Source: Gaiellaceae bacterium
GTDB lineage: Bacteria; Actinomycetota; Thermoleophilia; Gaiellales; Gaiellaceae
Assembly (NCBI GenBank): GCA_035698005.1
Contig: DASSCD010000166.1
Location: 1-29,333 of the forward strand
DNA length: 29,333 nt
Direction: 5' to 3'
Part shown: positions 6,858 to 24,384 of the stretch, one piece after another
How the letters are laid out: every line of letters begins with the position of its first letter
How positions within the stretch are numbered: position 1 is the stretch's first letter
The notes under the pieces: generated by a model
Told to the model about the DNA's origin: nothing
Seen by the model: the letters and a program-made list of their open reading frames with translations, nothing else
Databases searched by the model: none
Position numbers and translations under genes: made by a program

Positions 6858-6884
6858 CCGTCACCGCAGGTGACTGTCACCTGC
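6853..6884. repeat. Tandem REP-like palindromes at the convergent junction of rlmD and the membrane gene
   Basis: GGTGAC-C-GTCACC (6853-6865) is immediately followed by GCAGGTGAC-T-GTCACCTGC (6866-6884). Confidence 0.65.
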
Positions 6885-7736
6885 TTCGGTCCGCCCCCTC
6901 CACGCCGCGCGCACGTCGCGCCACAAGAGGTCCGCGTTCGGCGCGAGGAAGCCGAGGCAGACCGCCGGCAGCGCGGGTAGGCCGGGCGCGTCGTCCCAGG
7001 TCCACACGAGTGCGAGGGTGACGGAGAGAAGAGCGGTCATCGCGGCCCAGGTCCAGGGGACGCGCAGGCGGAAGCGGTCGGCGGCGGCGAGGAGGAGCGC
7101 GAAGAAGAGGATGTCCGGCGGGCCGATGTTCACGGTGGCCGTCTCGCCGGGGCTCGGGAACGCGACCGCGAGCCGTTCGAAGATGCCCGGCTGCTCCTCG
7201 ACGACGTAGCGGGTCGGCCCGGCGACGACGGACCAGATGTCGGCCCACGGTACGACGAGCGTGATCAGCGTCACCCACCACAACTCCTCGAAGAGCGTGA
7301 GGAACCAGAAGCCGACGAGCGCGTAGCAGGCGAGCTTGGCGACGTTCGCTGCCGACCCCATGTCGACCGCGGAGAGGACGAGCGCCGAGGCGCCGGCGGT
7401 CACGGCCGTGACGGCGAGGAGCCCACTCGAGCCACGGGCGAGGGGGAGCGCGAGCCAGATCGCGGCGGCGAAGAACGGGAAGACGAGCGCGCTGTGGAAG
7501 GCGACATCGACGCCCGAGGGGAGCTCCGGGAGCTTCGCCGCGACAGCGCCATAGGCGACGAGTGCCGCGAGCGAGGCGCCGAGGGCGGTGAGGCGACCGG
7601 GGCCTAGATGGTTGATCGGCAACCCCTCGCCGCGCGGCTGGTGGCCGAGACTCATCGCTGGCTGGCGCCGCCCTCCCTCGCCCGTATTCCCGATACGTGC
7701 TCGGTCGGGCGGCGTCCCCAGCTTGGTCTCGGCCAT
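6861..7736 (-). CDS. Polytopic membrane protein with presenilin/signal-peptide-peptidase-like motifs; first ~44 codons derive from the inserted 169-bp element
   Basis: About 8-9 hydrophobic segments with WADIWSV, NIGPPDILFF and a C-terminal LPALP. True start is uncertain. Confidence 0.7.
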   Translation of the reverse strand: MAETKLGTPPDRARIGNTGEGGRRQPAMSLGHQPRGEGLPINHLGPGRLTALGASLAALVAYGAVAAKLPELPSGVDVAFHSALVFPFFAAAIWLALPLARGSSGLLAVTAVTAGASALVLSAVDMGSAANVAKLACYALVGFWFLTLFEELWWVTLITLVVPWADIWSVVAGPTRYVVEEQPGIFERLAVAFPSPGETATVNIGPPDILFFALLLAAADRFRLRVPWTWAAMTALLSVTLALVWTWDDAPGLPALPAVCLGFLAPNADLLWRDVRAAWRGRTEAGDSHLR

Positions 7737-7772
7737 CCCCGCATCGACGGCGATTACCGATCAACCATCTAG
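7604..7772. mobile_element. 169-bp CTAG-bounded palindromic element (MITE-like), copy 1
   Basis: Perfect 16-bp terminal inverted repeat CTAGATGGTTGATCGG/CCGATCAACCATCTAG plus nested internal inverted repeats. Colinear with 23364-23532 (23 mismatches, no gaps, by manual alignment). Confidence 0.8.
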
Positions 7773-8350
7773 AACGGCGATTGCTCCGCCCACCAGGGGC
7801 CGAGCGCCTTGAGGGCGTTCCAGAAGCGGGTCTTCGACGGCGCGTCGTCGAGCGAGTCGTCGACGTCCGGTGTCACGAGCGCCTCGATCGTCGGCGTGAA
7901 GCGCTGCAGCGTTCCCTCCGCGCCCGCATCGACCGCGTCTGCGAGCGGGAACCGCAGCTCGTTCACGAATGCGACCGACCGCTCGCCCATGACGACGACG
8001 AGCTTCGGCTGGACGATGTGGAGCTCGCGGGTGAGCCAGCCGGCGGCGTCCGCGGGGTCCTCGGTGCCGAACTTCAGGCAGTTCGTCCCGTAGACGGCTA
8101 GCGGGTCGATCAGCAGCCGCTGGAGCGACTTCAGCACCGCTTGGCCGGCACGGCCGAAGAAGGCGACGCCTTCCTGGATCTCCGTCGGCTGCGGTGTGAA
8201 CTTCAGCAGGAAGACGTCCGCGAGCGGATGGCCGGAACCGAGCACGGGGACGCGCAGCTCGTCGCCGGCCTGTGCGAGCTCGTCGCCGAGCTCGTTGATC
8301 TCGGCGATGGCCCTCTTCAGATAGCGCTCGTAGATCTCGTCGGTTGGCAC
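7769..8350 (-). CDS. Uracil-DNA glycosylase-like fold protein with degenerate catalytic motifs
   Basis: GSGHPLADVFLL...GVAFFGRAGQAV...VYGTNCLK...ELHIVQPKLVVVMG resembles family-4 UDG. Start could also be the GTG at 8362. Confidence 0.75.
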   Translation of the reverse strand: MPTDEIYERYLKRAIAEINELGDELAQAGDELRVPVLGSGHPLADVFLLKFTPQPTEIQEGVAFFGRAGQAVLKSLQRLLIDPLAVYGTNCLKFGTEDPADAAGWLTRELHIVQPKLVVVMGERSVAFVNELRFPLADAVDAGAEGTLQRFTPTIEALVTPDVDDSLDDAPSKTRFWNALKALGPWWAEQSPF

Positions 8351-8385
8351 GGCGGCGGGCACGGAGTCGCTGGGACCTTTCTCGC

Positions 8386-10092
8386 TTAGCGGACCTTCTC
8401 CTTGACCTGGGCCACCCACTTCAGCGACTGCAGGTACGCGAGCGACTTCGGACGGCGGAGAACCTCGGCCGTGCGCAGCGAAAGGAGGAACTCCTCCGGC
8501 CCGTCGAAGCGCGGCATGCGCATCGCGCCCGTGCCGACACCCTGCAGCACGTGCGCGTCGGAACCGGCGCCCTGGAGGAGCCGGTACTTGCGCGCGAAGC
8601 GCAGCGCCTCGTCGTTGAAGGACTCGCGCAGGAGGCGGGCATTGAAGACCTCGAAGACGTCGATCTCCCCGAGGTGGCGGTGGAGCGTCGCCGGGTCCGG
8701 GATCGCATGCATGCGATCGAACGGGTGTGGAAGGTAGACGAGGCCACCCTGGTCGCGGATCGCGGCGACCGTGTCCGCGAAGGACAGGCCGCGCGGAATC
8801 TCCTCCTCGAGGAAGAGCCCGATCACCTCGCCCTGGCCGTCCGTCTTCACCTCTTCGCCCGGGATCACGATCAGGCGCCGGCCGGCCGCGTGCTCGACCG
8901 CCTCGAGCGCGCCGCCGAAGGCGTTGTGGTCGGTCACGGCGATGCCGCCGAGGCCGATCTCCTCCGCGTGGTCGACGAGGTCGGCGGCTGGAATCGAGCA
9001 GTCGTGCGACCAGTCGGTGTGCATGTGCATGTCGACGACGACCCAGTCGCGCTCTGCGAGCGGGTCGTCGACGCGCGCGCCCCGCGGCTGGCGCCGCTTG
9101 CGGGTGAGCCCGGCGTACACCTCGTCCAATTGGGCCGCGACGACGTCGAACGTCTGTGCCTCTGCACGCCTGCGTCCTTCTTCCGCGAGCCGCGAGCGCT
9201 GCACGTCGTCCTGCACGAGCGCGACGACGTCGTCCACAGTCGCGGTCGCAGCCGCGCACGCGGCGGCCTCGAGCGCGAGACGCTCCTCCCCGTCCACGGC
9301 CGGGACGAAGATCGACGCCTCGCTCAGGATCGCGGCGCGCTGCTCCGGCGTCCGGATCGACCGGACGTGCGTCCGTTGGCGGACCGCGCGCGGGATGGCG
9401 GGGCGGTAGGCGAGCGGCTTCGTGTGCAGGAGGTGGAGCTCCCAGCCCGCGAGATCGGGGAGCGAGGCGAGCAGTGCGCGCGTGGCCGCCCGGCCCGCCA
9501 TCTCCAGCTCGACGGCGATCATGTTCCGCTTCCGCCGCGGCTGATAGACGTCGGGGTCGATGCCGAGCGCCACGAGCCGGTAGTCGCCCGCGAGCCGCTC
9601 GCGTGCGGCCGCGATCGTCTGCTCCGAGGTCGCGAGCAGGGCGTCGACGCGGATGCGGAGCCGGTCCCGGCGCGACCTCCGCGCGGGGTAGCCGACTCGC
9701 TCGGGCGAGAAGAACGTAGCCGCGGTCAGCGCGTCCGCCGTCGTGAGCGCGAGGTAGGACAGGCTCGGAAGGCCGGGCTCGAACCCGTGGACGACGTCGA
9801 AGCGGCCCCGGCGGAGCGCGAGCGCGAGGTTCGCGCGAACACCGACCGGGACGCCGATGTGCGTCCGGCGCGAGATCGGGATCGACGGGCCCACCGCGAC
9901 GACCTCCCGGTCGAGCCCACGCTGGAGGGCACGACGACCGTCGAGGAGATCGCGGGCCCGGGACGACGGCGCGACGACGGTGACCTCGTGCCCGAGCACG
10001 CGGAGTGCGCGAGCCGCCCCGTCGACGTGCGCGTTCACCTCGTGCGGCTGCGACCACGCGAACGGCGTGACGAAGCAGATCCTGAGGCTCAC
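8386..10092 (-). CDS. Fusion of a PimA-like GT4 glycosyltransferase domain and a C-terminal PHP phosphoesterase
   Basis: N-terminal RICFVTPF...GHEVTVVAP...FDVVHGFEPGLPSLS. PHP metal motifs DMHMHT, TDHN, GEE, HPF and GSDAH. TAACCT -10 box lies 7 nt before the GTG. Confidence 0.88.
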   Translation of the reverse strand: MSLRICFVTPFAWSQPHEVNAHVDGAARALRVLGHEVTVVAPSSRARDLLDGRRALQRGLDREVVAVGPSIPISRRTHIGVPVGVRANLALALRRGRFDVVHGFEPGLPSLSYLALTTADALTAATFFSPERVGYPARRSRRDRLRIRVDALLATSEQTIAAARERLAGDYRLVALGIDPDVYQPRRKRNMIAVELEMAGRAATRALLASLPDLAGWELHLLHTKPLAYRPAIPRAVRQRTHVRSIRTPEQRAAILSEASIFVPAVDGEERLALEAAACAAATATVDDVVALVQDDVQRSRLAEEGRRRAEAQTFDVVAAQLDEVYAGLTRKRRQPRGARVDDPLAERDWVVVDMHMHTDWSHDCSIPAADLVDHAEEIGLGGIAVTDHNAFGGALEAVEHAAGRRLIVIPGEEVKTDGQGEVIGLFLEEEIPRGLSFADTVAAIRDQGGLVYLPHPFDRMHAIPDPATLHRHLGEIDVFEVFNARLLRESFNDEALRFARKYRLLQGAGSDAHVLQGVGTGAMRMPRFDGPEEFLLSLRTAEVLRRPKSLAYLQSLKWVAQVKEKVR

Positions 10093-10135
10093 GGTCGGGA
10101 GGTTAGCCTCCTCCTGGCTCGGCTACAGTCGACTC

Positions 10136-10339
10136 GTGGGCGGGGTGGAGATCAAGGTACGGAGGAACGGGCCGTACAAGGTCACCGGGCCCGCACGGGT
10201 GGTGGACGCCGCAGGCAACGAGATCACCTGCCCCGAAGGCGACGCGGTCGCGCTCTGCCGCTGCGGCAACTCGCGGACGAAGCCGTTCTGCGACGCGAGC
10301 CACAAGCGGGTCGGGTGGGTGGCCGACCCGCGTCGCTAG
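10136..10339 (+). CDS. CDGSH iron-sulfur domain protein (67 aa)
   Basis: NGPYKV...LCRCGNSRTKPFCDASH. TACAGT -10 box lies 6 nt before the GTG at 10136; alternative GTG at 10145. Confidence 0.9.
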   Translation: MGGVEIKVRRNGPYKVTGPARVVDAAGNEITCPEGDAVALCRCGNSRTKPFCDASHKRVGWVADPRR

Positions 10340-11040
10340 GTCGCCGCGCGGTTCGGGTTGCGGCGCAGCGCGAGGCGCTCGCCGGGAGCGAGGACGACCT
10401 CGAGCCCCTCGTTCGAGCGCGTGAGGACGAGCTGGACGTCGTCGAGCGCGGCGAGCACGCGCGCCTCCGGGTCGCTCGACTGTGCGCTACGGAATCGTTC
10501 GAGAACGGGCACGAGAAGGTAGGTCGCCCCGGTGAGGATCCAGATCACGGCGAGGGCCTTGCCCATGCTCTCCGAGGCGTTGCGGTCCCAGATCGCATAG
10601 CTGGAGAGCACAGCGGCCAGGGCTGCGAGGATGCCTGCGATCGTCGCGAGCGGCGTCAGCGACGCGGACTCAGCGAGCAGGCGCGCGGTCACTGCGATCA
10701 AAGTCGCGATCAGGAGGACCACGCCGGTCCACCCGTACCGCCAGGCATCGCCGCCACCGTCGAACACGAAGTCCCAGATCGCGTACGCGAGCAGTCCGAA
10801 GCCGAGCGGTGCGACGACGACGGCGACACGTCCGAGCAAGGCGTCGTCGCGGTCGACGAGCACGAGCCCCGAGACCAGCGTCCCTCCGGCCAGGAGGAGC
10901 GCTGCCAGCGTCGCGAGAATCCGGCCGTCCGTGTCCGAAAAGTCTCCGCGAAGCACCGCGGCGAGAGCGATCAGCGCGGCGACGACGAGCGCCGCCGCCG
11001 CGCCGATCCAGAACGTGCGCGCGAGGCGCCGGCGGGTCAC
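10336..11040 (-). CDS. Hypothetical multi-pass membrane protein (234 aa)
   Basis: [20 protein letters not shown]..., about six TM segments. GTGA overlap with the ino1 stop codon. Confidence 0.75.
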
Positions 11041-12530
11041 GCCTTCGCTGCCGCCTTCGTCTTCGCCTTGCCGACCGCGTTCTTCACGATGAAGCGCTCG
11101 ATGTCCTCGCGCGCCTCGTCGTCGCGGATCTGCTTCGGCGGCGACTTCATCAGGTATGCGCTCGGCGCCTCGAGCGCGCCCGAGATGCCGTTGTTCAAGG
11201 CCAGCTTCGCCAACCGGACGGCGTCGATGACGATCCCGGCCGAGTTCGGCGAGTCCCAGACCTCGAGCTTCAGCTCGACGTTGAGCGGCACGTCGCCGAA
11301 GGAGGAGCCCTCCATGCGGATGTACGCCCACTTGCGGTCGGTCAGCCACGGCACGTAGTCGGACGGGCCGACGTGCACGTTCCCGTCGCCGATGTCGTAG
11401 TCGAGCATCGACGTGACCGCGTTCGTCTTCGAGATCTTCTTCGATTCGAGGCGCTCGCGCTCGAGCATGTTGAGGAAGTCGGAGTTGCCGCCGACATTGA
11501 GCTGCATCGTCTTGTCGAGGTGGACGCCGCGGTCGCCGAACAGTGTCGTCAGCATGCGGTGCGTGATCGTCGCCCCGACCTGCGACTTGATGTCGTCGCC
11601 GATGATCGGGCAGCCGGCCTCCTCGAAGCGCTTGTGCCAGTACGGCTCGCGAGCGATGAAGACGGGCATGCAGTTCACCATCGCGACGCCGGCCTCGAGG
11701 ATCTGCTCCGCGTACCACTTCGTCGCAGCCTCCGAGCCGACCGGCAGGTAGTTGACGACGACGTCGGTGCCGGTCTCCTTCAGGATCCGGACGACGTCGT
11801 CGGTCGGGCCGGCCGCCTTCTCCACGACCTGCGAGAGGTACTTGCCGATGCCGTCGTGCGTCATGCCGCGCGAGACCGTGACGCCCGTCTTCGGGACGTC
11901 AGAGAACCTGATCGTGTCGTTCGGCTTCGCCCAGATCGCGTCCGCGAGGTCGACTCCGACCTTGCCCTTGACGACGTCGAACGCCGCCGTGAACTCGATG
12001 TCCGAGATGTGGTACCCGCCGAGGTCGACGTGCATGAGGCCCGGGACCGTGTCCTCGGGCTTCGCGTCCTTGTAGTACTCGACTCCCTGCAGGAGCGAGT
12101 TGGCGCAGTTGCCCACGCCGATGATGGCGACGCGCACCTTGTCCTTCGCGCGTGCGCCGTTCTTCGAGCCGTTTTGAGAAGCCATGAGCTCCCTTCCCTT
12201 GCGGTTGCTCCGCGCGGGGACGCCGAGACCGTCGGCGAGCGCGGCGAGGATGACGTCGTTCGCGTTGGAGTCGCGCCGCGACGCCTCCGCGTGGATCTCG
12301 TCCTTCAGCTCCTGCGGGACACGGAGGAATAGGACGGGGCTGCCGCCCGCGAGCACCTTGCGCCTGCGGCCGGTGGGCGTGTAGTCGAGGCCGAACTCGT
12401 CGGCGAGGATGCCGGCGGCGACGTCGTTGACGTTGGAGCCGCGGCGGGCCGTCTCGCGGACGAGCGCTCCCTTCAAGGGAGCGGGCATCCGCACCAGGAT
12501 ACCCGCCCTCTGCGTTTTGCTAGCAGTCAA
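11037..12530 (-). CDS. ino1: myo-Inositol-1-phosphate synthase with an in-frame N-terminal tandem ribbon-helix-helix region
   Basis: [54 protein letters not shown] and [11 protein letters not shown] match actinobacterial Ino1. No stop codon between the TTG at 12530 and the Ino1-like ATG at 12185. Confidence 0.93.
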
Positions 12531-12568
12531 AGTGCTAGCAGATTACCGTACGCCACCTCCGGGCGCAA
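12518..12568 (-). promoter_or_regulatory. Promoter and candidate operator of the RHH-ino1 gene
   Basis: -35 TTGCGC (12568-12563), 17 nt, -10 TAATCT (12545-12540). TGCTAGCA-N7-TGCTAGCA lies at 12518-12540. Confidence 0.65.
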
Positions 12569-12603
12569 GGACGGGCATCGCACGCATGCGGCGCTGTCTC
12601 GGC

Positions 12604-12880
12604 CTAGCGCGCGCGCAGCGCGCGGATCAGGCCCCACTTGCCCATCTCCGAGCGGCCGCGGATGTTGCGCTCCTGCGCGAGCTCGTAGAGCTGCTGGCGG
12701 ATCCGGTCCTCGAGCGAGCTGCCGGCGCGCGGCCACCGCGCCTCCTCGCCCCGCGAAGCCTGCTTGCCGAATCGCGGCGAGTGGCCTCGGGCAGATGCGC
12801 GATCGTCCTCTTGCTCTCGACGCCGACTGCGCCCGGCGGATGTTGCGCTTCGCGGCTTCCGTCTGCTCGCGTGTGGCCAT
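12604..12880 (-). pseudogene. Frameshifted small basic protein with a Rho-N-like C-terminal motif
   Basis: Three frames join into MATREQTEAAKRNIRRAQSAS / KRTIAHLPEATRRD / GKQASR...SLEDRIRQQLYELAQERNIRGRSEMGKWGLIRALRAR*. The 277 nt are 2 nt short of a 93-codon ORF. Confidence 0.75.
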
Positions 12881-12915
12881 GATGCCCTCTTCTCGTTCGT
12901 CCTTCACACCGGGCT

Positions 12916-12931
12916 GCCCGCTCTCGCGGGC
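12916..12931 (-). terminator. Short GNRA-loop hairpin after pgsA
   Basis: GCCCGC-GAGA-GCGGGC on the minus strand, 8 nt after the pgsA stop. No U-tract. Confidence 0.35.
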
Positions 12932-12939
12932 GCTCCACG

Positions 12940-13608
12940 TCAGCGCGCTTCGGCGAGCTCGCGGAGCTGGCGGCGGACGAAGAGCATCCGCTGGGTCACC
13001 GTCACCCAGACGATCGCCGCGAGCGCGTAGATCGGCCATTGCAGCCAGCCCCAGGGGGCGAGGCCGAGGCCGACGGAGATGAGGACCACCCGCTCCACGC
13101 GCGACCCGAAGCCGACGTCGCCGCGGAGGCCGAGCGACTCCGCCTTCGCCCGCGTGTAGGAGACGAGGAACGAGCCGATGACGGCGGCGAAGGTCGCGAC
13201 GAGGGCGATCTCGTTCCCGTCCCGCATGAAGGCGAGCCCGATCGCGGCGAGCATCGCGGCCTCGCCGAGGCGGTCGAACGTCGAGTCGAGGAACGCCCCG
13301 AAGACCGTGCCCTTGCTCGCCGCCCGCGCGAGGGCGCCGTCCAGGATGTCCGCGATCGACCCGACGACGAAGAGTGCGCCGCCGACCCAGAAGAAGAGCT
13401 TCTCGTTGCGGTCCTCGAACCCCACGAGCACGGCGCCCGTGAGACAGAGCGAGACGCCGGCGAGCGTGAGCATGTCGGGCGTCAGCTTCGTCTTCGCGAC
13501 GCCGCGCATCGAGCGCGCGAGGATCTCGCGCGCAGCCTGCGTGTACTCCTGCTTGACCTTGTCGAGTTGGCTGACCCGGGCCGGCTCGCGCGCGGGGTCT
13601 TCGCTCAT
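12940..13608 (-). CDS. pgsA: CDP-alcohol phosphatidyltransferase, phosphatidylinositol-phosphate synthase (PgsA1/PipS-like)
   Basis: LTPDMLT, family motif DILDGALAR...FGAFLDSTFD, and SYTRAKAESLG...RVER, which resemble mycobacterial PgsA1. ATGA overlap with the upstream gene. Confidence 0.9.
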   Translation of the reverse strand: MSEDPAREPARVSQLDKVKQEYTQAAREILARSMRGVAKTKLTPDMLTLAGVSLCLTGAVLVGFEDRNEKLFFWVGGALFVVGSIADILDGALARAASKGTVFGAFLDSTFDRLGEAAMLAAIGLAFMRDGNEIALVATFAAVIGSFLVSYTRAKAESLGLRGDVGFGSRVERVVLISVGLGLAPWGWLQWPIYALAAIVWVTVTQRMLFVRRQLRELAEAR

Positions 13609-14345
13609 GCGCGCCGGAGGCGCAGCGTGCTCACCCGGCGCAGGACGTACCCGGTCGCCAGCGCGATCGCGAAGCCGGCGACGACGTCGAGCCAGTAGTG
13701 GTTCCCGGTGGAGATCACCGCGAAGGACACCCAGATCGGCCAGGCGAACCACAGCGCCTTCGCGAAGCGTGAGCGGACGACGCCGAACATCACGATCCCG
13801 ACGATCAGCGCGTCCATCGCGTGCAGGCTCGGCATCGCCGCGTACGGGTTCGAGGCGAAGGCGATGAGGCCGCTCGAGTGGTTGACCGAGGAGTATTGGC
13901 CGAGCGTGTCGACGAAGCCCCACTCGGGGAACATCCGCGGGGGTGCCGTCGGCATGAAGACGTAGCCCACGAGCCCGACGAGGTTCGCGAAGATGAGCCA
14001 GTTCCGAAAGCCTGCGAAGCGCTCGTGGTGACGGAAGTACACCCAGAGCAGCGTGATCCCGACGACCGCGAACTGGGACAGCCAGTAGGTGTACGAGGTG
14101 AGGGTCACGAGCACCGACGACGTGTCCACGACGCGCTGCACGGCCGGCTCGAAGAGCGCGCCGACCTGGCTCTCGGTGCGGAGCACCCACTCGCCGTTGT
14201 GGAACGCGCTCGCGACGTCGCGGTCGGCCGCCCCGCGGGCGACCTGGTACACGACGTAGAAGCCCATCCAGATGACGAACTGGAAGGCGAGGTGCGCCCA
14301 GCCGCGAGGCAGGCGCCGCGGACGGTCGGCGGCGTGGCTCGTCAC
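13605..14345 (-). CDS. PAP2-superfamily membrane protein, Aur1/Ipt1 (inositol-phosphoceramide-synthase-like, PAP2_3) type
   Basis: PTAPPRMF, YAAMPSLH and GNHYWLDVVAG motifs with about six TM segments. GGAGG lies 4 nt before the GTG at 14345. Confidence 0.88.
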   Translation of the reverse strand: MTSHAADRPRRLPRGWAHLAFQFVIWMGFYVVYQVARGAADRDVASAFHNGEWVLRTESQVGALFEPAVQRVVDTSSVLVTLTSYTYWLSQFAVVGITLLWVYFRHHERFAGFRNWLIFANLVGLVGYVFMPTAPPRMFPEWGFVDTLGQYSSVNHSSGLIAFASNPYAAMPSLHAMDALIVGIVMFGVVRSRFAKALWFAWPIWVSFAVISTGNHYWLDVVAGFAIALATGYVLRRVSTLRLRRA

Positions 14346-14358
14346 GACACCTCCGATT

Positions 14359-15387
14359 CTAACGGGACGCGCCGCGGTCGCTCTCAGGTCTCGGCGCATA
14401 CGAGGTCAGCGCCCGCATGTAGTTGCCACGCTCGAACGCGGCCGGGTCCGGGCACGACGCCTGGCTGAGGCTGCCCTGCAGCTGCCGCAGGGATTCGTAC
14501 TCGCGCTCAACCATCCAGGCTTCGATACCCACGAGGAGCTCGCGCACGACACCGGGCCCGCGCCGAAGGAGCGCCGAGGCGACGAGCACGGCGTTCGCAC
14601 CCGCGAGGAGGAGCTTCAAGGCGCCCTGCCAGTCGTGCACGCCGGTCGTGCCGGCGAGATCGACCTCCACGCGACCGCGGAGGATGGCGATCCAGCGCAG
14701 GGGAAGCCTGAGCTCGACCGGGCTCGAGAGCGGGAGCCAGGGCGCGACCTCGAGCGTCTCGAGGTCGATGTCCGGCTGCAGGAAGCGGTTGAAGAGCACG
14801 AGGCCGTCGGCTCCCGCGTCCGAGAGCCGTTGCGCCATGTGCGCGAAGGCCGAGTAGAAGGGGCCGACCTTGACCGCGAGCGGGAGCGACACCGCGTCGC
14901 GGACCTGTGCGACCAGGGCGAGCGTCCGCTCCTCGACGTCCGCCGCCGAGTGCCCGGGGTCGGTCTCGACCGCGTACACGTTCAGCTCGAGCGCGTCCGC
15001 ACCGGCTTCCTCGCAGAGGCGCGCGTAGCGCACCCAGCCGCCTGCCGAGACGCCGTTCAGGCTCGCGATCACCGGGACCTCGAGCGCTGCCTTCGCCAGC
15101 GCCAGGTGCTCGAGGTAGCGCTCCGGTCCGGTGTTGTAGTCCTCGAGCTCCGGGAACCAGGTGAGCGCCTCGCCGACGCTGTGCGTCTGGTGCTCGAGCA
15201 GGTCGTGGAGGTCGATCTGCTCGTGCTCGATCTGCTCCTCGAAGAGCGAGGGCAGGACGACGGCGGCGATGCCGGCCTCCTCTAGGGCGCGGAGCGAGTC
15301 GAGGGTGCCCGTGAGCGGCGAGGCGGAGGCGACGATCGGACCGCGGAGCGGGAGGCCGAGGTAGGTGGTCGAGAGGTCGACGGTCAC
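14359..15387 (-). CDS. Dihydroorotate dehydrogenase-like flavoprotein of the type linked to PFOR
   Basis: YLGLPLRGPIVASASP, SLFEEQI, ADALELN, GLVLFNRF, ASALLRRG and FERGNYM. GTGA overlap with the PFOR stop. Confidence 0.88.
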   Translation of the reverse strand: MTVDLSTTYLGLPLRGPIVASASPLTGTLDSLRALEEAGIAAVVLPSLFEEQIEHEQIDLHDLLEHQTHSVGEALTWFPELEDYNTGPERYLEHLALAKAALEVPVIASLNGVSAGGWVRYARLCEEAGADALELNVYAVETDPGHSAADVEERTLALVAQVRDAVSLPLAVKVGPFYSAFAHMAQRLSDAGADGLVLFNRFLQPDIDLETLEVAPWLPLSSPVELRLPLRWIAILRGRVEVDLAGTTGVHDWQGALKLLLAGANAVLVASALLRRGPGVVRELLVGIEAWMVEREYESLRQLQGSLSQASCPDPAAFERGNYMRALTSYAPRPESDRGASR

Positions 15388-18300
15388 GTCGTCTCGTCCT
15401 CGGCCGCCTCGGGGTCCGCCGGCTCGTGCTCGATCTCCGCCAGCTGCTCGTACACGTGCCAGCGCTCGTCGACGTCGTGCTGGGCGAGCGCGCCGAGCTC
15501 GGCGGCCTCGTCTGGGCGCGCGCGCCGGAGCATCGCGAAGCGCGCCTCCCGCGACATGAACTCGGAGACCGGGAGCTTCGGCGGGCGCGAGTCGAGCTTG
15601 AAGGGGTGCTCGCCGGCTTGCGCGTGGCGGGGGTCGTAGCGGTAGAGCGGCCAGTAGCCGGTGTCCACCGCGAGCTTGTGCTGCTCCATCGCCTTCTTCA
15701 TCTCGATCCCGTGCGCGATGCAGTGGCTATAGGCGATGACGAGCGACGGCCCGTCGTACGCATCCGCCTCCGCGAGGGCCTTCACGGTCTGCGGGTTGTC
15801 CGCGCCCATCGCGATCTGCGCGACGTACACGTCCCCGTACGCGGAGGCGATCATTCCCAGGTCCTTCTTGCGCGTGCGCTTGCCGCCGGCGGCGAACTTC
15901 GCCACCGCGGCGCGCGGCGTCGCCTTCGAGGCCTGGCCGCCGGTGTTCGAGTACACCTCGGTGTCGAGCACGAGGACGTTCACGTTCCGGCCGGAGGCGA
16001 GCACGTGATCGAGCCCGCCGAAGCCGATGTCGTACGCCCAGCCGTCGCCGCCCACGATCCAGACCGTCCTGCGGACGAGCGCGCGCGCGACGGCCAGGAG
16101 CCGGAGCGCCTCGGGAGTCGCCAGCTCGTAACAGCGCGACTCGAGCTCGTCGACGCGGACGCGCTGCGCGGCGATGCCGGCCTCCGTCGTCTGGTCCGCA
16201 TCGAGGAGAGCCGGCGCGAGGTCGGGGGCGACCTCGGCGACGAGCGCCCTGGCCGAGGCCTCCTGCTGGTCGAGCGCAAGCCGCATGCCGAGGCCGAACT
16301 CCGCGTTGTCCTCGAAGAGGGAGTTCGACCACGCCGGCCCGCGCCCGTCGGCGTTCCGTGCCCAGGGCGTCGTCGGCAGGTTGCCTCCGTAGATCGAGGA
16401 GCACCCGGTCGCGTTCGCGACGAGCATCCGGTCACCGAACAGCTGCGTGAGGAGCTTCAGGTACGGCGTCTCGCCGCAGCCCTCGCAGGCACCCGAGTAC
16501 TCGAACAGCGGCTGGAGCATCTGGGAGCCCTTCACCGTCGCCGGCGCGACGAGCGAGCGGTCGATCTCCGGGATCCCGAGGAAGAACGCATTGCGCTCGC
16601 GCTCGACCTCGAGATGGTCGTCCTTCGGCTCGAGGTTGATCGACTTGTGCCGGACCTCCTCCTTCGAGTGGGCAGGGCAGGTCTCGACGCAGATGCCGCA
16701 GCCCGTGCAGTCCTCCGGCGCCACCTGGATCGTCATCAGCATCCCGGGCAGGTCGCGGGCCTTCCACTCCTTCGAGGGGAACCCGTCCGGAGCGCCCTCG
16801 ACCGCCTCGGGCGGGAAGACCTTCATCCGGATCGCGGCGTGCGGGCAGACGAGCGTGCACTTCGCGCAGTCGATGCAGATAGAGGGGTCCCAGATCGGGA
16901 TCTCGGGCGCGATCGAGCGCTTCTCGTACTGCGCGGTGCCGGTCGGGAACGTCCCGTCGACCGGCAGCGCGGAGACCGGCAGGCCGTCGCCGCGGCCCGC
17001 GATGATCGCGGCCGTGACGTCGCGGACGAACGCGGGCGCCTCTGCTGCCACGGGCTCGGGCCGGCTCCGCGTCGCCGAGACCACCGTGGGGATCTCGACC
17101 TCGGCAAGACCCTCGAGAGCGCGGTCGACGGCCGCGAAGTTCCGCTCGAGCACCGCCTCGCCGCGCTTGCCATAGGTCGCGCGGATCGCGCCCTTGATGG
17201 ACGCGATCGCGTCCTCTCTGGGCATGACCTCGGCGAGCGCGAAGAAGCACGTTTGCAGCACGGTGTTAACGCGCTTGCCGAGGCCGGCGTCGCGCGCGAC
17301 CCGAGAGGCGTCGACCACGAAGAAGCGAAGCTGCTTCTCGACGATCTGCTCCTGCACCTCGAGGGGCAGGTGCTCCCACACCTCGTCGGGCCCATAGGGC
17401 GCGTTGAGAAGGAATGTCGCCCTCTCGGCGGCGAGCTCCAAAACGTCGATCCGGTCGAGGAAGCCGAACTGGTGGCAGGCGACGAAGTCGGCGCGCTGTA
17501 CGAGGTACGTCGAACGGATCGGCTCCGGCCCGAAGCGGAGGTGCGAGACGGTGGTCGAGCCGGCCTTCTTCGAGTCGAGCACGAAGTACGCCTGCGCATG
17601 GAGCCCGGTGGCCTCGGCGATGATCCTGATCGAGTTCCGGTTCGCCCCCACGGTGCCGTCGGCACCGAGGCCGTAGAAGACGGCCTGACGCACCTCCTCG
17701 GGCTCCGTCCTGAACATCGGGTCGACCTCGAGCGAGAGCCCGCCGACGTCGTCGGTGATCCCGACTGTGAACCGCCTCTTCGGATCCTCCTTCGCGAGCT
17801 CGGCGAGCGCGGCGGCGGCCATCGCAGGCGTGAGCTCCTTCGAGGAGAGGCCGTAGCGGCCGCCGATCACGCGTGGCGGCTCCGCGGTCCGCTCGGCGAG
17901 CGCCGTGACGACGTCCTGGAAGAGGGGCTCGGCGAGAGCGGCCGGCTCCTTCGTGCGGTCGAGCACGGCGATCGCGGACACCGAGGCCGGCAGCGTGGCG
18001 ACGAAGGCCGCGGCATCGAACGGGCGATACAGCCGGACCTTGACGACTCCAACGCGCTCGCCGTCGTCGCACAGCCGCTCGACGGCCTCCTCGGCCGCCC
18101 CCGCGCCCGACCCCATCAGCACGAGCACGCGCTCCGCCTCGGGGTGCCCGACGTAGTCGAACAGCCGGTAGGAGCGACCGGTCCGTCTCCCGAGCCGCGC
18201 CATCTCCTCCTGGACGATCCCGGGAACGGCGTCATAGAAGGGGTTGACCGCCTCCCGCGCCTGGAAGAAGACGTCGGGGTTCTGTGCGCTTCCGCGGAGC

Positions 18301-18938
18301 ACCGGGTCGTCGGGCGAGAGCGCGCGGGCGCGGTGTGCGCGCACGAGCTCCTCGTCGAGGAGCGCTCTGACGTCGTCCTCGGACAGGCGCTCGACCGTGC
18401 TCAGCTCATGTGAGGTGCGGAAGCCGTCGAAGAAGTGGAGGAAGGGAATGCGCGCCCGCAGCGTGGCGGCATGGGCGACGAGGGCGAGGTCGTGCGCCTC
18501 CTGCACGGACGAGGAGCACAGCAGCGCGAACCCGGTCGTGCGCGCGGCCATCACGTCGGAGTGGTCGCCGAAGATCGAGAGAGCGTGGGTCGCGACGGTG
18601 CGCGCCGCGACGTGGATGACCGCGGGCGTGAGCTCGCCCGCGATCTTGAACATGTTCGGGAGCATGAGCAGGAGGCCCTGCGAGCTCGTGAAGGTCGTCG
18701 CCAGCGAGCCGGCCTGCAGCGCGCCGTGCACCGCTCCCGCGGCGCCGCCCTCGCTCTGCATCTCGACGACCTGTGGCACCGCACCCCATGCGTTGGGGAC
18801 ACCCTGTGACGACCATGCGTCGGCGAGCTCCCCCATCGGAGTCGCCGGGGTGATCGGGTAGATCGCGATCACCTCGCTCGCGCGGTACGCGACCCAGGCA
18901 GCGCCCTCGTTGCCGTCGATGATCTCGCGACCTCCCAT
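15384..18938 (-). CDS. nifJ: Pyruvate:ferredoxin (flavodoxin) oxidoreductase, NifJ-type homodimer
   Basis: IAIYPITP, EMQSEGGAAG, two ferredoxin CxxCxxCxxxCP motifs, ACEGCGETPY and the TPP motif GGDGWAYDIG. Alternative start at 18974. Confidence 0.95.
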   Translation of the reverse strand: MGGREIIDGNEGAAWVAYRASEVIAIYPITPATPMGELADAWSSQGVPNAWGAVPQVVEMQSEGGAAGAVHGALQAGSLATTFTSSQGLLLMLPNMFKIAGELTPAVIHVAARTVATHALSIFGDHSDVMAARTTGFALLCSSSVQEAHDLALVAHAATLRARIPFLHFFDGFRTSHELSTVERLSEDDVRALLDEELVRAHRARALSPDDPVLRGSAQNPDVFFQAREAVNPFYDAVPGIVQEEMARLGRRTGRSYRLFDYVGHPEAERVLVLMGSGAGAAEEAVERLCDDGERVGVVKVRLYRPFDAAAFVATLPASVSAIAVLDRTKEPAALAEPLFQDVVTALAERTAEPPRVIGGRYGLSSKELTPAMAAAALAELAKEDPKRRFTVGITDDVGGLSLEVDPMFRTEPEEVRQAVFYGLGADGTVGANRNSIRIIAEATGLHAQAYFVLDSKKAGSTTVSHLRFGPEPIRSTYLVQRADFVACHQFGFLDRIDVLELAAERATFLLNAPYGPDEVWEHLPLEVQEQIVEKQLRFFVVDASRVARDAGLGKRVNTVLQTCFFALAEVMPREDAIASIKGAIRATYGKRGEAVLERNFAAVDRALEGLAEVEIPTVVSATRSRPEPVAAEAPAFVRDVTAAIIAGRGDGLPVSALPVDGTFPTGTAQYEKRSIAPEIPIWDPSICIDCAKCTLVCPHAAIRMKVFPPEAVEGAPDGFPSKEWKARDLPGMLMTIQVAPEDCTGCGICVETCPAHSKEEVRHKSINLEPKDDHLEVERERNAFFLGIPEIDRSLVAPATVKGSQMLQPLFEYSGACEGCGETPYLKLLTQLFGDRMLVANATGCSSIYGGNLPTTPWARNADGRGPAWSNSLFEDNAEFGLGMRLALDQQEASARALVAEVAPDLAPALLDADQTTEAGIAAQRVRVDELESRCYELATPEALRLLAVARALVRRTVWIVGGDGWAYDIGFGGLDHVLASGRNVNVLVLDTEVYSNTGGQASKATPRAAVAKFAAGGKRTRKKDLGMIASAYGDVYVAQIAMGADNPQTVKALAEADAYDGPSLVIAYSHCIAHGIEMKKAMEQHKLAVDTGYWPLYRYDPRHAQAGEHPFKLDSRPPKLPVSEFMSREARFAMLRRARPDEAAELGALAQHDVDERWHVYEQLAEIEHEPADPEAAEDETT

Positions 18939-19042
18939 CGCATACAGGGTGTTCCGCGGGCCCGCCGAGGGCATCAGGGTCGACGCTGACGGCCGTTCGG
19001 GCTTCCCCGCACGCGACCCGGGCGCCGTGCGACGATGGCCCG

Positions 19043-20002
19043 GTGCAGGCTCCCGTCACCGTCGCGTGCGTCCAGGCCGAGCCGGTCGTCTTCGATCGCG
19101 AGGCAACGCTCGACAAGCTCGCCGCGCTGACGGCCGAGGCCGCCGGCAACGGCGCCGAACTCGTCGTCTTCCCGGAGACGTTCGTCTCCGTGTATCCGTC
19201 GTCGGCGTGGGCACGCGCGCTCGCCGGCTGGAACGACCCGCGCGCGAAGGCCGCGTTCGCAGCGCTTGCACGCTCCGCGGTCGAGGTCCCGGGGCCTGCC
19301 GCGGACCGCCTGGGCGCGATCGCGCGCGAGCACGGGGTCTGGCTCGTGACCGGCGTCAACGAGCTCGACCCCGCGCGGAACGCAACCGTGTACAACGCGC
19401 TCCTCTACCACGCACCCGACGGCACGCTCGCGCTGAAGCACCGGAAGCTCGTGCCGACGAACCACGAGCGGCTCGTGTGGGGGCAGGGCGACGGCGGCGG
19501 GCTGCGCGCGCTCGAGACGCCGCTCGGCCGCCTCGGAGGGCTCGTCTGCTGGGAGAACTACATGCCGCTCGCCCGCTTCGCGCTGTACGAGTCGGGGGTC
19601 GAGATCTACCTCGCCTCCACTGCGGACGACGCCGACGAGTGGCAGGCGACGCTCGTCCACATCGCCCGCGAGTCGCGCTGCTTCGTCGTCGCCCCCTGTC
19701 ACTTCCAGCGGGCATCGGCCTACCCGGCCGACTTCCCCCTCGCGGACCTGCTCGAGGGCCGCGACCTCCTCGGGCGCGGCGGCAGCGCGATCCTCGCCCC
19801 CGACGGCTCGTACCTGACCGGCCCGCTGTACGCCGAGGAGGGGATCCTGTACGCCGAGCTCGACCCCGCTCGGCTGCTCGAGGAGCGCCAGCGCTTCGAC
19901 GCGGCGGGCCACTACCACCGCCCCGACGTCCTCCGGCTCGAGGTGACGCCGACCGGATCCGCATCAGCGCCGCTGATCGAACCGCCCACGACCTCGACTT
20001 GA
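19043..20002 (+). CDS. Nitrilase (carbon-nitrogen hydrolase family)
   Basis: Glu-Lys-Cys triad in FPE, HRKLVPT and CWEN; C-terminal FDAAGHYHRPD. Confidence 0.92.
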   Translation: MQAPVTVACVQAEPVVFDREATLDKLAALTAEAAGNGAELVVFPETFVSVYPSSAWARALAGWNDPRAKAAFAALARSAVEVPGPAADRLGAIAREHGVWLVTGVNELDPARNATVYNALLYHAPDGTLALKHRKLVPTNHERLVWGQGDGGGLRALETPLGRLGGLVCWENYMPLARFALYESGVEIYLASTADDADEWQATLVHIARESRCFVVAPCHFQRASAYPADFPLADLLEGRDLLGRGGSAILAPDGSYLTGPLYAEEGILYAELDPARLLEERQRFDAAGHYHRPDVLRLEVTPTGSASAPLIEPPTTST

Positions 20003-20033
20003 GGTGATCGGCCGCCGTCGGCGATCCTGGCCC

Positions 20034-20987
20034 ATGGCGGCGCGTCACGACGCACGCATCTGGCTCGCTCTGGGGACGGTGTACGTCGTCTGGGGCTCGA
20101 CGTTCATCGCGCTCGCGATCGTCGTCCGCGACCTCCCGCCGCTCCTCGCCATGTCCGCGCGGCACGTCGTCGCCGGCGGCGTGCTCCTCGCGTTCGCGCT
20201 CCCGCGCGGCGACCGCGAGCACGACCGGATCGGCACGCGGCAGATCGGCGCCGCGCTCGTCTTCGGCGGGCTGCTCTTCGTCGTCGGGCACGGGAGTCTC
20301 GCGTGGGCGCAGCAGACCGTCCCGGCCGGCGTCGCGGCTCTCCTCATCGGCACGATCCCGATCTGGATCGTGCTCCTCGACCGCGTCTTCTTCGGGCGCC
20401 GCCTCCACGGCTCCGCGTACGCCGGGCTCGTGCTCGGCTTCGTCGGCCTCGCCTTCCTCTTCGACCCCTTCGGCGAGGGCTCGGTCGACCGCCTCGGCGC
20501 CCTCGTCATCGTGCTCAGCGCACTGAGCTGGGCGGCCGGCTCGCTGTACTCGCGCGGCGCGCCGCTGCCCCGACGGCCGCTCGTCTCCGCTGGGCTCGCC
20601 TCGCTCTGCGGCGGCGTGCTGCTGCTCGTCGCCTCGCTCGCGGTGGGCGAGCCCGGCGACGTGCATCTCTCGCAGGACGCGCTCATCGCACTCGGCTACC
20701 TCATCGTCGCCGGGAGCTTCGTCGGGTTCACCGCCTACGTCTGGCTGCTGCGCGTCGCGCCCATCTCACTCGTGGGGACCTACGCCTACATGAACCCGAT
20801 CGTCGCCGTGTTCCTGGGATGGGCGCTCCTCGGCGAGGAGGTCACCGCGCAGATGGCCGCCGCGGGCGCTGCGATCGTGCTCTCGGTCGCGTTGATCCTG
20901 CGGGCGAGCGGCTCGGCGGTCGAGCCGGGCCGCGGCCTGCTCCGCCGCCGGCGGCCGATCCCCGCCGCCGCCGAGCCCGTGGCGTAG
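20034..20987 (+). CDS. EamA/DMT transporter (YedA-like)
   Basis: LGTVYVVWGST, two EamA repeats and TYAYMNPIVAVFLG; about 10 TM segments. Confidence 0.9.
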   Translation: MAARHDARIWLALGTVYVVWGSTFIALAIVVRDLPPLLAMSARHVVAGGVLLAFALPRGDREHDRIGTRQIGAALVFGGLLFVVGHGSLAWAQQTVPAGVAALLIGTIPIWIVLLDRVFFGRRLHGSAYAGLVLGFVGLAFLFDPFGEGSVDRLGALVIVLSALSWAAGSLYSRGAPLPRRPLVSAGLASLCGGVLLLVASLAVGEPGDVHLSQDALIALGYLIVAGSFVGFTAYVWLLRVAPISLVGTYAYMNPIVAVFLGWALLGEEVTAQMAAAGAAIVLSVALILRASGSAVEPGRGLLRRRRPIPAAAEPVA

Positions 20988-20993
20988 CGCGTC

Positions 20994-21998
20994 TTAGCCG
21001 CCGATGTAGGACATCTCGACCTTGCGCAGCGCGGCCGTGTCCTCGGTGCGGAGCTCGGAGTAGCGGTCGGCGCGGCGCTCCCAGACCGCCCGGATCGCCG
21101 CGTCGAGCTCGTCGTCGCCCGCGTCGGAGCGGAGCTGCGCGCGCAGGTCGTGGCCGCGGACCGCGAACAGGCAGGTGTAGAGCTTCCCGTCGGCCGAGAG
21201 CCGCGCCCGCGTGCAGTTGCCGCAGAAGGGCTGCGTCACCGAGGCGATCACGCCGATCTCGCCCTCGCCGTCGAGGTACCGGTACCGCTCAGCGACCTCT
21301 CCGCGGTACGCGGGGTCGAGGGGCTCGAGCGGGAACTCGGCGCCGATCGTGCGCACGATCTCCGCGGCGGGGACGACGTCGTCGAGTCGCCAGCCGTTCG
21401 TCGCGCCGACGTCCATGAACTCGATGAACCGGACGACGTGACCGGTCCCGCGGAAGCGCCGCGCCATGTCCAGGACGGTCGCCTCGTTGAGCCCCCGCTT
21501 GACGACGACGTTGACCTTGACCGGAAGCCCCGCGGCGGCGGCTGCGTCGATCGCGCCGAGCACGCGGGCGACCGGGAAGTCGACGTCGTTCATCGCGCGG
21601 AACACCTCGTCGTCGAGCGAGTCGAGGCTGACGGTGACGCGCGTGAGGCCGGCCGCGGCCAGCGCCTCGGCCTTCTGCGCCAGGAGCGCGCCGTTCGTGG
21701 TCAGCGTGAGATCGAGGTCGCCGAGGGCCGCGAGCCGCGCCACCAGGAGCTCGAGGTCGCGGCGGAGCAGCGGCTCGCCCCCGGTGATCCGCAGCTTGTT
21801 CACGCCGAGCGAGACGAAGACGCGGGCCACGCGCTCGATCTCCTCGAACGTCAACAGCTCGCGGCGGGGGAGAAAGCGGTGGTCGCGCCCGAAGACCTCC
21901 TTCGGCATGCAGTACACGCAGCGGAAGTTGCAGCGGTCGGTGACCGAGATCCGCAGGTCACGGAGGGGGCGCCCGAGGGTGTCGGCGACGTGCGGCAC
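20994..21998 (-). CDS. moaA: GTP 3',8-cyclase (molybdenum cofactor biosynthesis)
   Basis: Radical SAM motif CNFRCVYC, C-terminal CGNC-x13-C and terminal YIGG. Start placed at the GTG at 21998 because the longer start at 22049 would overlap the divergent promoter. Confidence 0.95.
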
Positions 21999-22066
21999 TG
22001 CTCCGACAGGGTAGTCGGCGACGGCCCGGCTAGGATCGAGGACGTCCACGCGAAGGGAGCCCGCTC

Positions 22067-22423
22067 ATGAGCCCGATCTCGAAGTCTCTCGCGCTCGCCC
22101 TGCTCGTCTCGCTCGTCGTGGCGGCCGCCGCGGTCGCAAGGTCGTCGGCCACCGCCGTGTCGGTCACCGCCGGAAAGCCGAGCGAGTTCAGGTTCACGCT
22201 CTCGAAGAAGACGGTGCCGAAGGGAACGGTCACGTTCAGGGTCTCGAACCGCGGCACGGTCAGCCACGACTTCAAGATCGCCGGGAAGCGGACGAAGCTG
22301 ATCCCGAAGGGCAGGAGCGCGATCCTCACCGTCAAGATCCCCAAGGCCGGCAAGTACAAGTTCCTCTGCACCGTTCCCGGCCACGCGGCCGGCGGGATGA
22401 AGGGCGTCCTGACCGTCAAGTAA
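22067..22423 (+). CDS. Secreted cupredoxin (plastocyanin/azurin/auracyanin-like)
   Basis: Signal-peptide-like N-terminus; type-1 Cu ligands in SHDF...CTVPGHAAGGM. TAGGAT -10 box and AAGGGAG ribosome-binding site. Confidence 0.88.
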   Translation: MSPISKSLALALLVSLVVAAAAVARSSATAVSVTAGKPSEFRFTLSKKTVPKGTVTFRVSNRGTVSHDFKIAGKRTKLIPKGRSAILTVKIPKAGKYKFLCTVPGHAAGGMKGVLTVK

Positions 22424-22475
22424 CCGTTCCGGCTTCCTCGCGCGAGGGAGGCATGACTGCCATAGCCTCCCGCCG

Positions 22476-23375
22476 ATGCGCGGCGACGAGCGATCCTTCC
22501 TGCCGCTGCTCGCGCTCGTCGGGGTCACCGCGATCTGGGGCGTCACGTTCGTGCAGGTGCAGGACGCGCTCGCGCTGTACCCGCTCTTCGCCTTCCTCGC
22601 GGTGCGGTTCGCGATCTCGACCGCGGCCCTCGCGCCGTTCGCCTGGGGCCGGCTCGGGGAGCTGCCGCGCGAGGGATACATCGCGGGGGTCGGCGTCGGC
22701 GCGCTGCTCGCGGCCGCGTACGGCTTCCAGACCGCCGGGCTCGAGCTGACCACCGTGTCGAGCACGGGCTTCATCACCGGCCTGTACGTCGTCTTCACCC
22801 CGTTCATCGCGCTCGCGCTCTTTCGCACGCCCGTGCCGCGCGCGCTCTGGGCCGGCGTCGGCCTCGCCGTCGTCGGCCTCTTCCTGCTCTCCGGAGCCCC
22901 GGGCGGCTCCGCGACGGGCAACGCGCTCGTCCTCGCGGCGGCGCTCGCCGCCGCGCTCCAGATCGTCGCGCTCGAGCGGTTCGCGCCGCGCTACGACGTG
23001 CGCGCGCTGACGTTCCTGCAGATGGCGACGTCGTTCGTCGGCTTCCTGGCGATCGCACTCGTGCTCGGCGAGCTCGAGGTCCCGCAGGGCGGCACCGTGT
23101 GGGCTGCCTTGCTCGTGACTGGGCTCTTCGCGGGCGCGCTCGGCTTCCTGGTCGCGACCTGGGTGCAGGCCCGGACGACCGCCGCTCGCGCCGCCCTCGT
23201 CTTCACGCTCGAAGCGCCCTTCGCCGCACTTGCGGGCGTGCTGCTCGCGGACGAGGTCCTGGGCTCCGCCGGGTGGCTCGGGTGCGGCGTGATGATGGCG
23301 GGGATCCTGCTCGCCGAGCCGTTCGCCGCGAGCGCCCTGCGGCGCGTCCTGCCGCGGGGGAGGCTAGATGACTGA
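22476..23375 (+). CDS. EamA/DMT transporter; last codons and stop supplied by the 169-bp element
   Basis: AIWGVTF, FITGLYVVFTP and VFTLEAPFA motifs. TAGCCT -10 box lies 7 nt before the ATG. Confidence 0.9.
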   Translation: MRGDERSFLPLLALVGVTAIWGVTFVQVQDALALYPLFAFLAVRFAISTAALAPFAWGRLGELPREGYIAGVGVGALLAAAYGFQTAGLELTTVSSTGFITGLYVVFTPFIALALFRTPVPRALWAGVGLAVVGLFLLSGAPGGSATGNALVLAAALAAALQIVALERFAPRYDVRALTFLQMATSFVGFLAIALVLGELEVPQGGTVWAALLVTGLFAGALGFLVATWVQARTTAARAALVFTLEAPFAALAGVLLADEVLGSAGWLGCGVMMAGILLAEPFAASALRRVLPRGRLDD

Positions 23376-23532
23376 CCGTCAATCGCTCGCCGCGCGGATG
23401 GTGGCCGAGACGCATCGGCGGGCGGCGCCGCCCTCCATCGCCCGTATTCCCGATACGCGCTCGGTCGGGCCGCGTCCCCGGCTCGATCTCGGCCATCCCC
23501 GCATCGACGCCGATCACCGGTCAGTCATCTAG
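23364..23532. mobile_element. 169-bp CTAG-bounded palindromic element (MITE-like), copy 2
   Basis: Perfect 15-bp terminal inverted repeat CTAGATGACTGACCG/CGGTCAGTCATCTAG. Same length and internal stems as 7604-7772. Confidence 0.8.
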
Positions 23533-23534
23533 GC

Positions 23535-24380: not shown

Positions 24381-24384
24381 CCGT

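Follow-up and report, generated by a model that had tools for sequence, protein, structure and literature searches.

Two 169-bp palindromes, copies A and B, lie in a 29,333-nucleotide (nt) contig stretch (the window) from a Gaiellaceae bacterium, whose genome is a 1.67-Mb metagenome-assembled genome (MAG) that is 74% complete. We conclude, with a probability of roughly 0.8, that these palindromes are copies of a MITE (a miniature inverted-repeat transposable element) of one Gaiellaceae genus, with an IS982-type insertion sequence (IS) as partner, a TA target and a hairpin that is selected during spread. The family is real, apparently undescribed and ordinary in kind, with a candidate partner identified. 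Its unusual feature is that the best-conserved part is the tip of a passenger hairpin, which is common to elements of other phyla. In our reading, each copy consists of a 163-bp core (GATG...CATC) between duplicated TA dinucleotides, and both ends carry the 20-nt left terminal repeat of an IS982-family IS of about 1,005 bp, the DDE transposase of which most likely moves the MITE in trans. The 127-nt interior, unrelated to the IS, forms a long hairpin maintained by compensatory changes, and hairpin and tip seem to be selected during spread, for example as a fold or a host-factor site aiding transposition.

The two window copies aligned without gaps, with 23 mismatches (86.4% identity), and their perfect terminal inverted repeats measured 16 bp in copy A and 15 bp in copy B. 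A first-pass annotation of the window had reported these lengths, repeats and mismatches, an identity of about 86%, and three base changes in the ends that are mirrored on the opposite arm; all were reproduced, and the rest of its description proved correct as well. The mirrored changes fall at element positions 8/162, 9/161 and 13/157, and a fourth compensatory pair was found at 49/121. The proposal that each copy folds as one long rod also held, with RNA minimum free energies of -109.3 (A) and -96.1 (B) kcal/mol and z-scores against dinucleotide shuffles of -10.7 and -6.4, respectively, far beyond chance.

A third copy was present in the host genome (contig C45:3284-3451), and 59 full-length copies with a mean pairwise identity of 0.83 were extracted from the genus, which is a lower limit on the size of the family there. 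Copies were found in 29 of 108 genus genomes, a set that for this and all later genus tallies includes the unpublished genome G051, at 1 to 8 per genome and at differing loci. No copy was found in 16 genomes from four other families of the order. Relatives of the host genome are recorded as uncultured Gaiellaceae from soil, and a 19-nt end pattern matched at least 120 soil metagenome contigs; among the matches listed, about 90 further copies lay on 120 such contigs. Two sets of variants were also observed, a sister subfamily of about 168 bp with identical ends and another interior in G003 (L007, L011 and L013-L016), and shorter forms of 109-123 bp in L006, L074, L075 and L210.

Both window loci have empty counterparts. 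The site of copy A was empty in the nearest relative, G086, and in G077, where the flanks lie 4 nt (TCAG) apart instead of 169, and the site of copy B was empty in G086 (...gggagg TGAG gcgtgg...), again with 4 nt for 169, so that filled and empty sites differ by a net 165 bp at both loci. The flanks of copy A were matched in 94 genus genomes. Most of these lack the element there, which is explained more simply by a gain in the lineage of the window. The search for further copies and for empty sites that the first-pass annotation had proposed yielded at least 59 copies in the genus and vacant sites for both window copies in the same relative. At the junction of copy A with the stop codon, six other genus genomes (L080, L082, L083, L088, L099 and L100) carry a different insert of 85-350 bp, GC-rich and palindromic, with a common GCGGCCGCGAAGCGGCCGCCTTCAGGG-type hairpin, which looks like another repeat family that uses the same site.

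Comparison of orthologous loci between species gave a further pattern. At two loci (L034/L066 and L036/L037) the element lay in opposite orientations in two species, and at a third (L030/L035) it lay about 30 nt apart in two species, flanking one short segment on either side. Such opposite orientations and shifted positions could reflect re-use of the site or inversion in place. Copies at orthologous loci were no more alike than random pairs.

The evidence for the partner comes from soil metagenomes. Among the matches listed, at least 8 loci carried the MITE ends 1,002-1,005 bp apart, which gives elements of 1,004-1,007 bp, and all 8 of these IS copies had an intact open reading frame (ORF) of 299-326 amino acids (aa), CTAG on both sides, and ends reading (CTA)GATGG...CCATC(TAG) with terminal repeats of about 20 nt. 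The encoded protein, P0001, scored 158.5 bits against the NCBIfam IS982 model NF033520 (cut-off 130, E 2e-46) and matched Pfam DDE_Tnp_1 with an E value of 2e-13, whereas the best IS5 model gave only 31 bits (cut-off 110). The two MITE ends matched the left end of this IS at 20/20 and 19/20 nt, the two elements had no other sequence in common, and the tip motif of the MITE was not found in the IS. Because both ends match the left end and the interior is unrelated, the MITE is best described as two left ends around a foreign hairpin and not as a deletion derivative. The partner itself looks like an undescribed IS982 subgroup with a CTAG/TA target. IS982-like proteins with 38-69% identity occurred in 15 of the 108 genus genomes. 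Cognate IS ends were seen in two of them, intact in G051 and degenerate at a contig end in G024, so that the intact cognate IS within the genus rests on the unpublished genome. A second IS982-like subfamily (L330 1427-2409 and L331 536-1517, from G014 and G046), with about 38% aa identity to P0001, is likewise CTAG-bounded, and its ends differ (CTAGAGGCTTGATG...).

The duplicated TA of the element usually lies within CTAG. In a set of 51 copies, TA adjoined the GATG...CATC core on the left in 28, on the right in 31 and on both sides in 18, against a background of 0.97% of dinucleotides in the flanks; TGA stood on both sides of the core in 2 of the 51. In these genomes of about 70% G+C, TA makes up only about 1% of dinucleotides and is concentrated in stop codons, and the element therefore comes to lie exactly where genes end. 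Because its termini include stops in the frames that enter it, the upstream gene still terminates. Consistent with this, all 30 confidently called genes reading toward a copy stopped inside its terminus (15 at the TAG of CTAG, 4 at a TGA at offset 3 and 6 at a TGA ten bases in), so the element sits precisely at stop codons and puts a stop back in place. Among the 59 copies, 9 had divergent flanking genes and 1 had convergent ones, and TA-containing promoter boxes might be the cause of the divergent excess.

Covariation was assessed on alignment A2 of the 59 copies over 70 pairs, with 500 shuffles and slid partners as controls. Pairing was found in 93.3% of alignment cells. Double changes were present in 38 of the 70 pairs, compared with 17.4±2.0 in the shuffles, none of which reached the observed value (0/500), and with 13-19 for slid partners. 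The annotation's central inference, a non-autonomous MITE family, is thus upheld by dispersed copies well beyond two, TA duplications, empty sites, significant covariation and an autonomous element whose ends are the same. Of the refuting outcomes that the annotation had named, namely a total of two copies, a lack of empty sites and covariation short of significance, none was observed.

Conservation was distributed unevenly along the hairpin. Mean column conservation was 0.95 at the apex and 0.82-0.83 at the termini, which were conserved or covarying across the 59 copies. Singleton substitutions, in contrast, occurred at similar rates at the apex (0.72 per column) and elsewhere (0.63). These even rates indicate that resident copies decay evenly, and that conservation, like the compensatory changes, is a property of the lineages that went on spreading. 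Selection therefore seems to act on spreading lineages and not on resident copies or on a service to the host at each locus.

The tip recurs in other phyla. An exact 19-mer from the tip was found in 44 stretches of a species-level genome collection, including Gaiellaceae and related actinobacterial MAG records as well as proteobacterial MAGs, among them one alphaproteobacterial MAG (six stretches), a Maricaulaceae MAG, a Bordetella-labelled MAG and a gammaproteobacterial MAG. A 17-mer search gave five copies in the Maricaulaceae MAG, and a plasmid from a cultured species, Terrarubrum flagellatum, also carried the 17-mer, between the IIB and IIC genes of a phosphotransferase system. In the alphaproteobacterial, Maricaulaceae, Bordetella-labelled and Terrarubrum cases, the tip lay inside an element of about 272 bp with its own, differing terminal repeats of about 20-30 nt, TA or TTA flanks where recognisable, and two internal hairpins, the second of which bears an inverted, diverged version of the motif. 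The gammaproteobacterial copy was about 173 bp long, with CTAG before it, and ended at a contig edge. Across 13 sequences from six lineages a tip block of about 21 columns was invariant, and the closing stems differed yet still paired. Outside the genus, 400 sampled Actinomycetota genomes contained the motif at about chance level, so its spread is sporadic, as expected for horizontal movement.

On this basis we propose, tentatively and aware that the idea could well be wrong, that the tip (about 27 nt around GCGTATCGGGAATACGG, with copy-specific closing stems) is a portable module in TA/TNA-targeting MITEs of differing ends, in Actinomycetota and several Proteobacteria, and is kept because it is needed for spread. 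For instance, a host protein of wide conservation may recognize it, or it may fold as a single strand in a way that aids DDE transposition. If the proposal is true, the portable tip would represent a kind of passenger function that bacterial MITEs are not described as having. We did not find the motif in the literature. A partner for the 272-bp elements was not found, with no IS982 match above cut-off in four proteobacterial MAGs. A solo end in the Maricaulaceae MAG was considered as a lead to such a partner and was set aside, as it flanks an ordinary membrane-protein gene. The window element had no match in a plasmid collection, where the proteobacterial relative occurred on Terrarubrum and Agrobacterium plasmids only, with no adjacent transposase. 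A single match on a viral contig was rejected as an apparent coding sequence with no hairpin. In the elements of about 272 bp, as at L130 1213-1488 and L152 2945-3217, the tips of the two hairpins are inverted copies of each other that have diverged, and the alphaproteobacterial MAG contained two nested-insertion variants.

Several observations weigh against a MITE that is mobilized by an IS982-type partner and selected during spread. Transposition itself was not observed. No transposase of the IS982, IS630, IS5 or PIF type was found in the host genome (74% complete) or in G095, G086, G060 or G079, in a search by transposase family that covered the host genome and five copy-rich genomes, and within the genus the MITE and IS982-like genes were not significantly linked (6/29 versus 9/79 genomes, p = 0.22). 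Many MITE copies thus look like orphans. In a comparison aimed at the hosts of the IS copies from metagenomes, one contig's flank matched genus genomes only weakly. The IS does not have the 5'-AC-3' ends described for its family (PMC7335449). A matching duplication was absent from 31 of the 51 copies, presumably through decay, and a CTAG pre-insertion site at the copy B locus would have had no in-frame stop, which leaves the ancestral state there ambiguous. Nineteen private double compensatory changes suggest that pairing was restored within single lineages and would need either unsampled sister copies or arm-to-arm repair.

The palindromes could instead be structured RNAs that act once one strand has been transcribed, for example as an intercistronic processing, stabilizing or insulating hairpin or as a small RNA gene, with mobility secondary. 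We consider this unlikely, although the strong covariation and a tip conserved across phyla would fit it, and one strand does fold better. The minus-strand sense, that is, the reverse complement of the window's plus strand, was the better folder in 58 of the 59 copies (mean -116 versus -102 kcal/mol), and that strand had 302 cells with G·U and 79 with A·C. The asymmetry is due mainly to a small number of family-wide G·U positions, however, and among states present in three or fewer copies the numbers were 35 G·U and 31 A·C; nor was the tip depleted in private substitutions. Orientation relative to tandem flanking genes was 15 versus 10 (p = 0.42), and copies A and B lie in opposite senses to their operons. 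Given equal rare states, unfixed orientation and the flipped orthologous loci, we do not regard strand-specific selection on an RNA as shown. No match of the elements to Rfam 15 was obtained at gathering score or at E ≤ 1. In four soil metatranscriptomes the depth over both copies was at most 3, the same as in their neighbours, with coverage too thin to exclude transcription. The annotation's alternative of a structured RNA repeat accordingly gained no support from Rfam, orientation, the strand pattern of substitutions or the sparse transcript data. Within 6900-24400 of the window, the only stretch of high depth in these metatranscriptomes was 10988-12155 (47-205 versus ≤36 elsewhere), a depth that probably sums many organisms.

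The remaining alternatives concern a different mover or a coding role. The annotation had suggested an IS630 or IS5 partner, and duplication of TA inside a CTAG target is classically a trait of IS630. CTAG/YTAA duplication is documented for the IS5-type MITEPsy1 (PMC3189936). Derivation from an IS630/Tc1-mariner or IS5 element is nevertheless improbable. A search for such a transposase with the same ends found none in the genomes searched: DDE_3 occurred in G054 only, with ends unlike those of the MITE, DDE_Tnp_1 was likewise confined to G054, and DDE_Tnp_1_2 and DDE_Tnp_4 were found in 0 of 5 copy-rich genomes. The sole same-ended element found encodes an IS982-family protein, scoring above the NF033520 cut-off and far better than on any IS5 model, and the suggested partner was therefore not borne out. 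Transposases of the IS427/IS1031 and PIF types were also tried as candidates and were absent from the copy-rich genomes or had unlike ends. Still less probable is that the 54-codon ATG-to-TAG frame present in both window copies is a real mini-gene giving translational coupling, as proposed for the mycobacterial interspersed repetitive units (MIRUs). The TAG-ATG...TAG layout is suggestive, several copies have the next ATG abutting or overlapping the stop (TAGATG or TGATG), and in the hairpin the third positions of codons lie opposite one another, a consequence of the element's geometry. The frame was intact from ATG to terminal stop in only 29 of the 59 copies, however, with at least 12 frameshifted, including the third copy of the host and the copies of 168 or 170 nt. 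Its residues were poorly conserved, it ran antisense to its neighbours in 10 of the 25 tandem settings, and the mismatches between copies A and B fell 9/7/7 on codon positions 1/2/3. The annotation, which had reported the frame and this count, was right to read the constraint as structural and not coding. We give least credence to movement as single-stranded DNA by a RAYT/Y1 (HUH) transposase, which would make the element a doublet of the REPIN type. A long hairpin, compensatory changes, low copy number, long persistence and family-wide G·T-compatible positions on one strand are all compatible with such a doublet, but Y1_Tnp was found in 12 of 29 genomes with the element and 35 of 79 without it (p = 0.83), and was lacking from G095 and G086, which hold 7 and 4 copies. 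REPINs, moreover, are not known to make the TA duplications seen here, and a DDE-type IS with the same ends exists.

If the palindromes are MITEs with an IS982-type partner, as we prefer, their closest described counterparts are MITECca01/02 of a Cardinium endosymbiont, which derive from the IS982-family ISCca4 (PMC9769881), so that an IS982-derived MITE as such is already known. Both are short and gene-less, carry IS982-family terminal repeats, occur in numerous copies and presumably depend on a transposase supplied in trans. MITECca01/02 retain a stretch of the IS beside the left repeat and resemble deletion derivatives, whereas the Gaiellaceae MITE has 20 nt in common with its IS and consists of two left ends. 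They have no counterpart to its unrelated full-length hairpin with a conserved tip. Cardinium hosts are AT-rich endosymbionts, in contrast to GC-rich soil actinobacteria, and the Cardinium elements are not described as targeting CTAG or stop codons. IS982 elements in general are about 1 kb long and have conserved 5'-AC-3' termini, and their direct repeats vary in length, from 0 to 7 bp in the table of the family review (PMC7335449). The partner IS is like them in its length of about 1 kb, its one ORF of about 299-326 aa, its repeats of about 20 nt and its profile score above cut-off, but it differs in its GATG...CATC ends, in being flanked by CTAG in all copies, and in its TA duplication.

More distant analogues include Correia/NEMIS of Neisseria, ERIC of enterobacteria and RUP of pneumococcus, which are hairpin MITEs that target TA or CTAG. 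Together with MITEPsy1 (PMC3189936), these resemble the Gaiellaceae MITE as 100-170-bp palindromes with terminal repeats and TA/CTAG duplication that are intergenic, often lie in operons and can form long mRNA hairpins. They differ in having no sequence similarity to it and another partner family, and in that the Gaiellaceae MITE conserves its tip over its ends. REPINs, reportedly described with RAYT transposases by Bertels and Rainey in 2011, are alike in their long hairpin, compensatory evolution and long persistence at low core divergence, and unlike in that the Gaiellaceae MITE has no Y1 link but has TA duplications and a DDE partner. The mycobacterial MIRUs, intercistronic repeats that Supply et al. 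are said to have described in 1997, have in common with it an intercistronic position and a small frame that abuts the stop and start codons of its neighbours, but they are direct tandem repeats with no palindrome, terminal repeats or duplications, and the frame of the Gaiellaceae MITE is not conserved.

These results bear on annotation, since the element sits on stops, supplies new stops, adds codons and can sever a downstream gene from an overlapping start. Because it reshapes gene ends in this way, gene callers will mis-set ends around it, and assemblies break at the partner IS. For IS982 biology, they point to a subgroup with a CTAG/TA target and ends outside the AC rule. For MITE biology, the service of a hairpin to a cut-and-paste element becomes a directly testable question. 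What is new here is the IS982-type partner for this family, the two left ends, and the observation that recent substitutions are neither strand-biased nor excluded from the tip.

The features of the window that relate to the two copies are given in the table, in which the strand of copies A and B is that of the better-folding strand, whose 5' end corresponds to the left end (IRL) of the partner IS.

Table. Coordinates in the window of the two MITE copies, their parts and the adjoining genes
Feature	Position	Strand	Remarks
MITE copy A	7604..7772	-	169 bp including CTAG at both ends
Copy A core, GATG...CATC	7607..7769	.	163 bp; duplicated TA at 7605-7606 and 7770-7771
Copy A apical block	7677..7703	-	best-conserved part of the family; 17-nt centre at 7682-7698, one mismatch in copy A
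MITE copy B	23364..23532	-	169 bp; same window orientation as copy A; flanking genes on the other strand
Copy B apical block	23437..23463	-	exact 17-nt motif at 23442-23458
Membrane-protein gene	6861..7603	-	downstream of copy A; no Pfam match
TAG stop of UDG-superfamily gene	7769..7771	-	inside the CTAG of the element; from ORF list and Pfam UDG match
UDG-superfamily gene	7772-8380	-	Pfam UDG match
Upstream EamA gene	22476-23375	+	G086 orthologue stops at a TGA of its own, located at the empty site
TGA in left end of copy B	23373..23375	+	now ends the upstream EamA gene, +3 codons
Downstream EamA gene	23535..24380	+	GTG start 3 nt past copy B

In relatives, the empty site has TGA or TAG where the UDG-superfamily gene of the window has TAG. 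The membrane-protein gene of these relatives has a start that overlaps the UDG-like gene's end, and copy A, by inserting, has separated the window gene from that start. An in-phase ATG at 7736, inside copy A, opens a frame that runs into the membrane-protein gene (6861-7736, minus strand), and it may serve as a replacement start. Elsewhere in the window, a tRNA gene was identified at 570-642 on the minus strand (Rfam RF00005, 68.8 bits).

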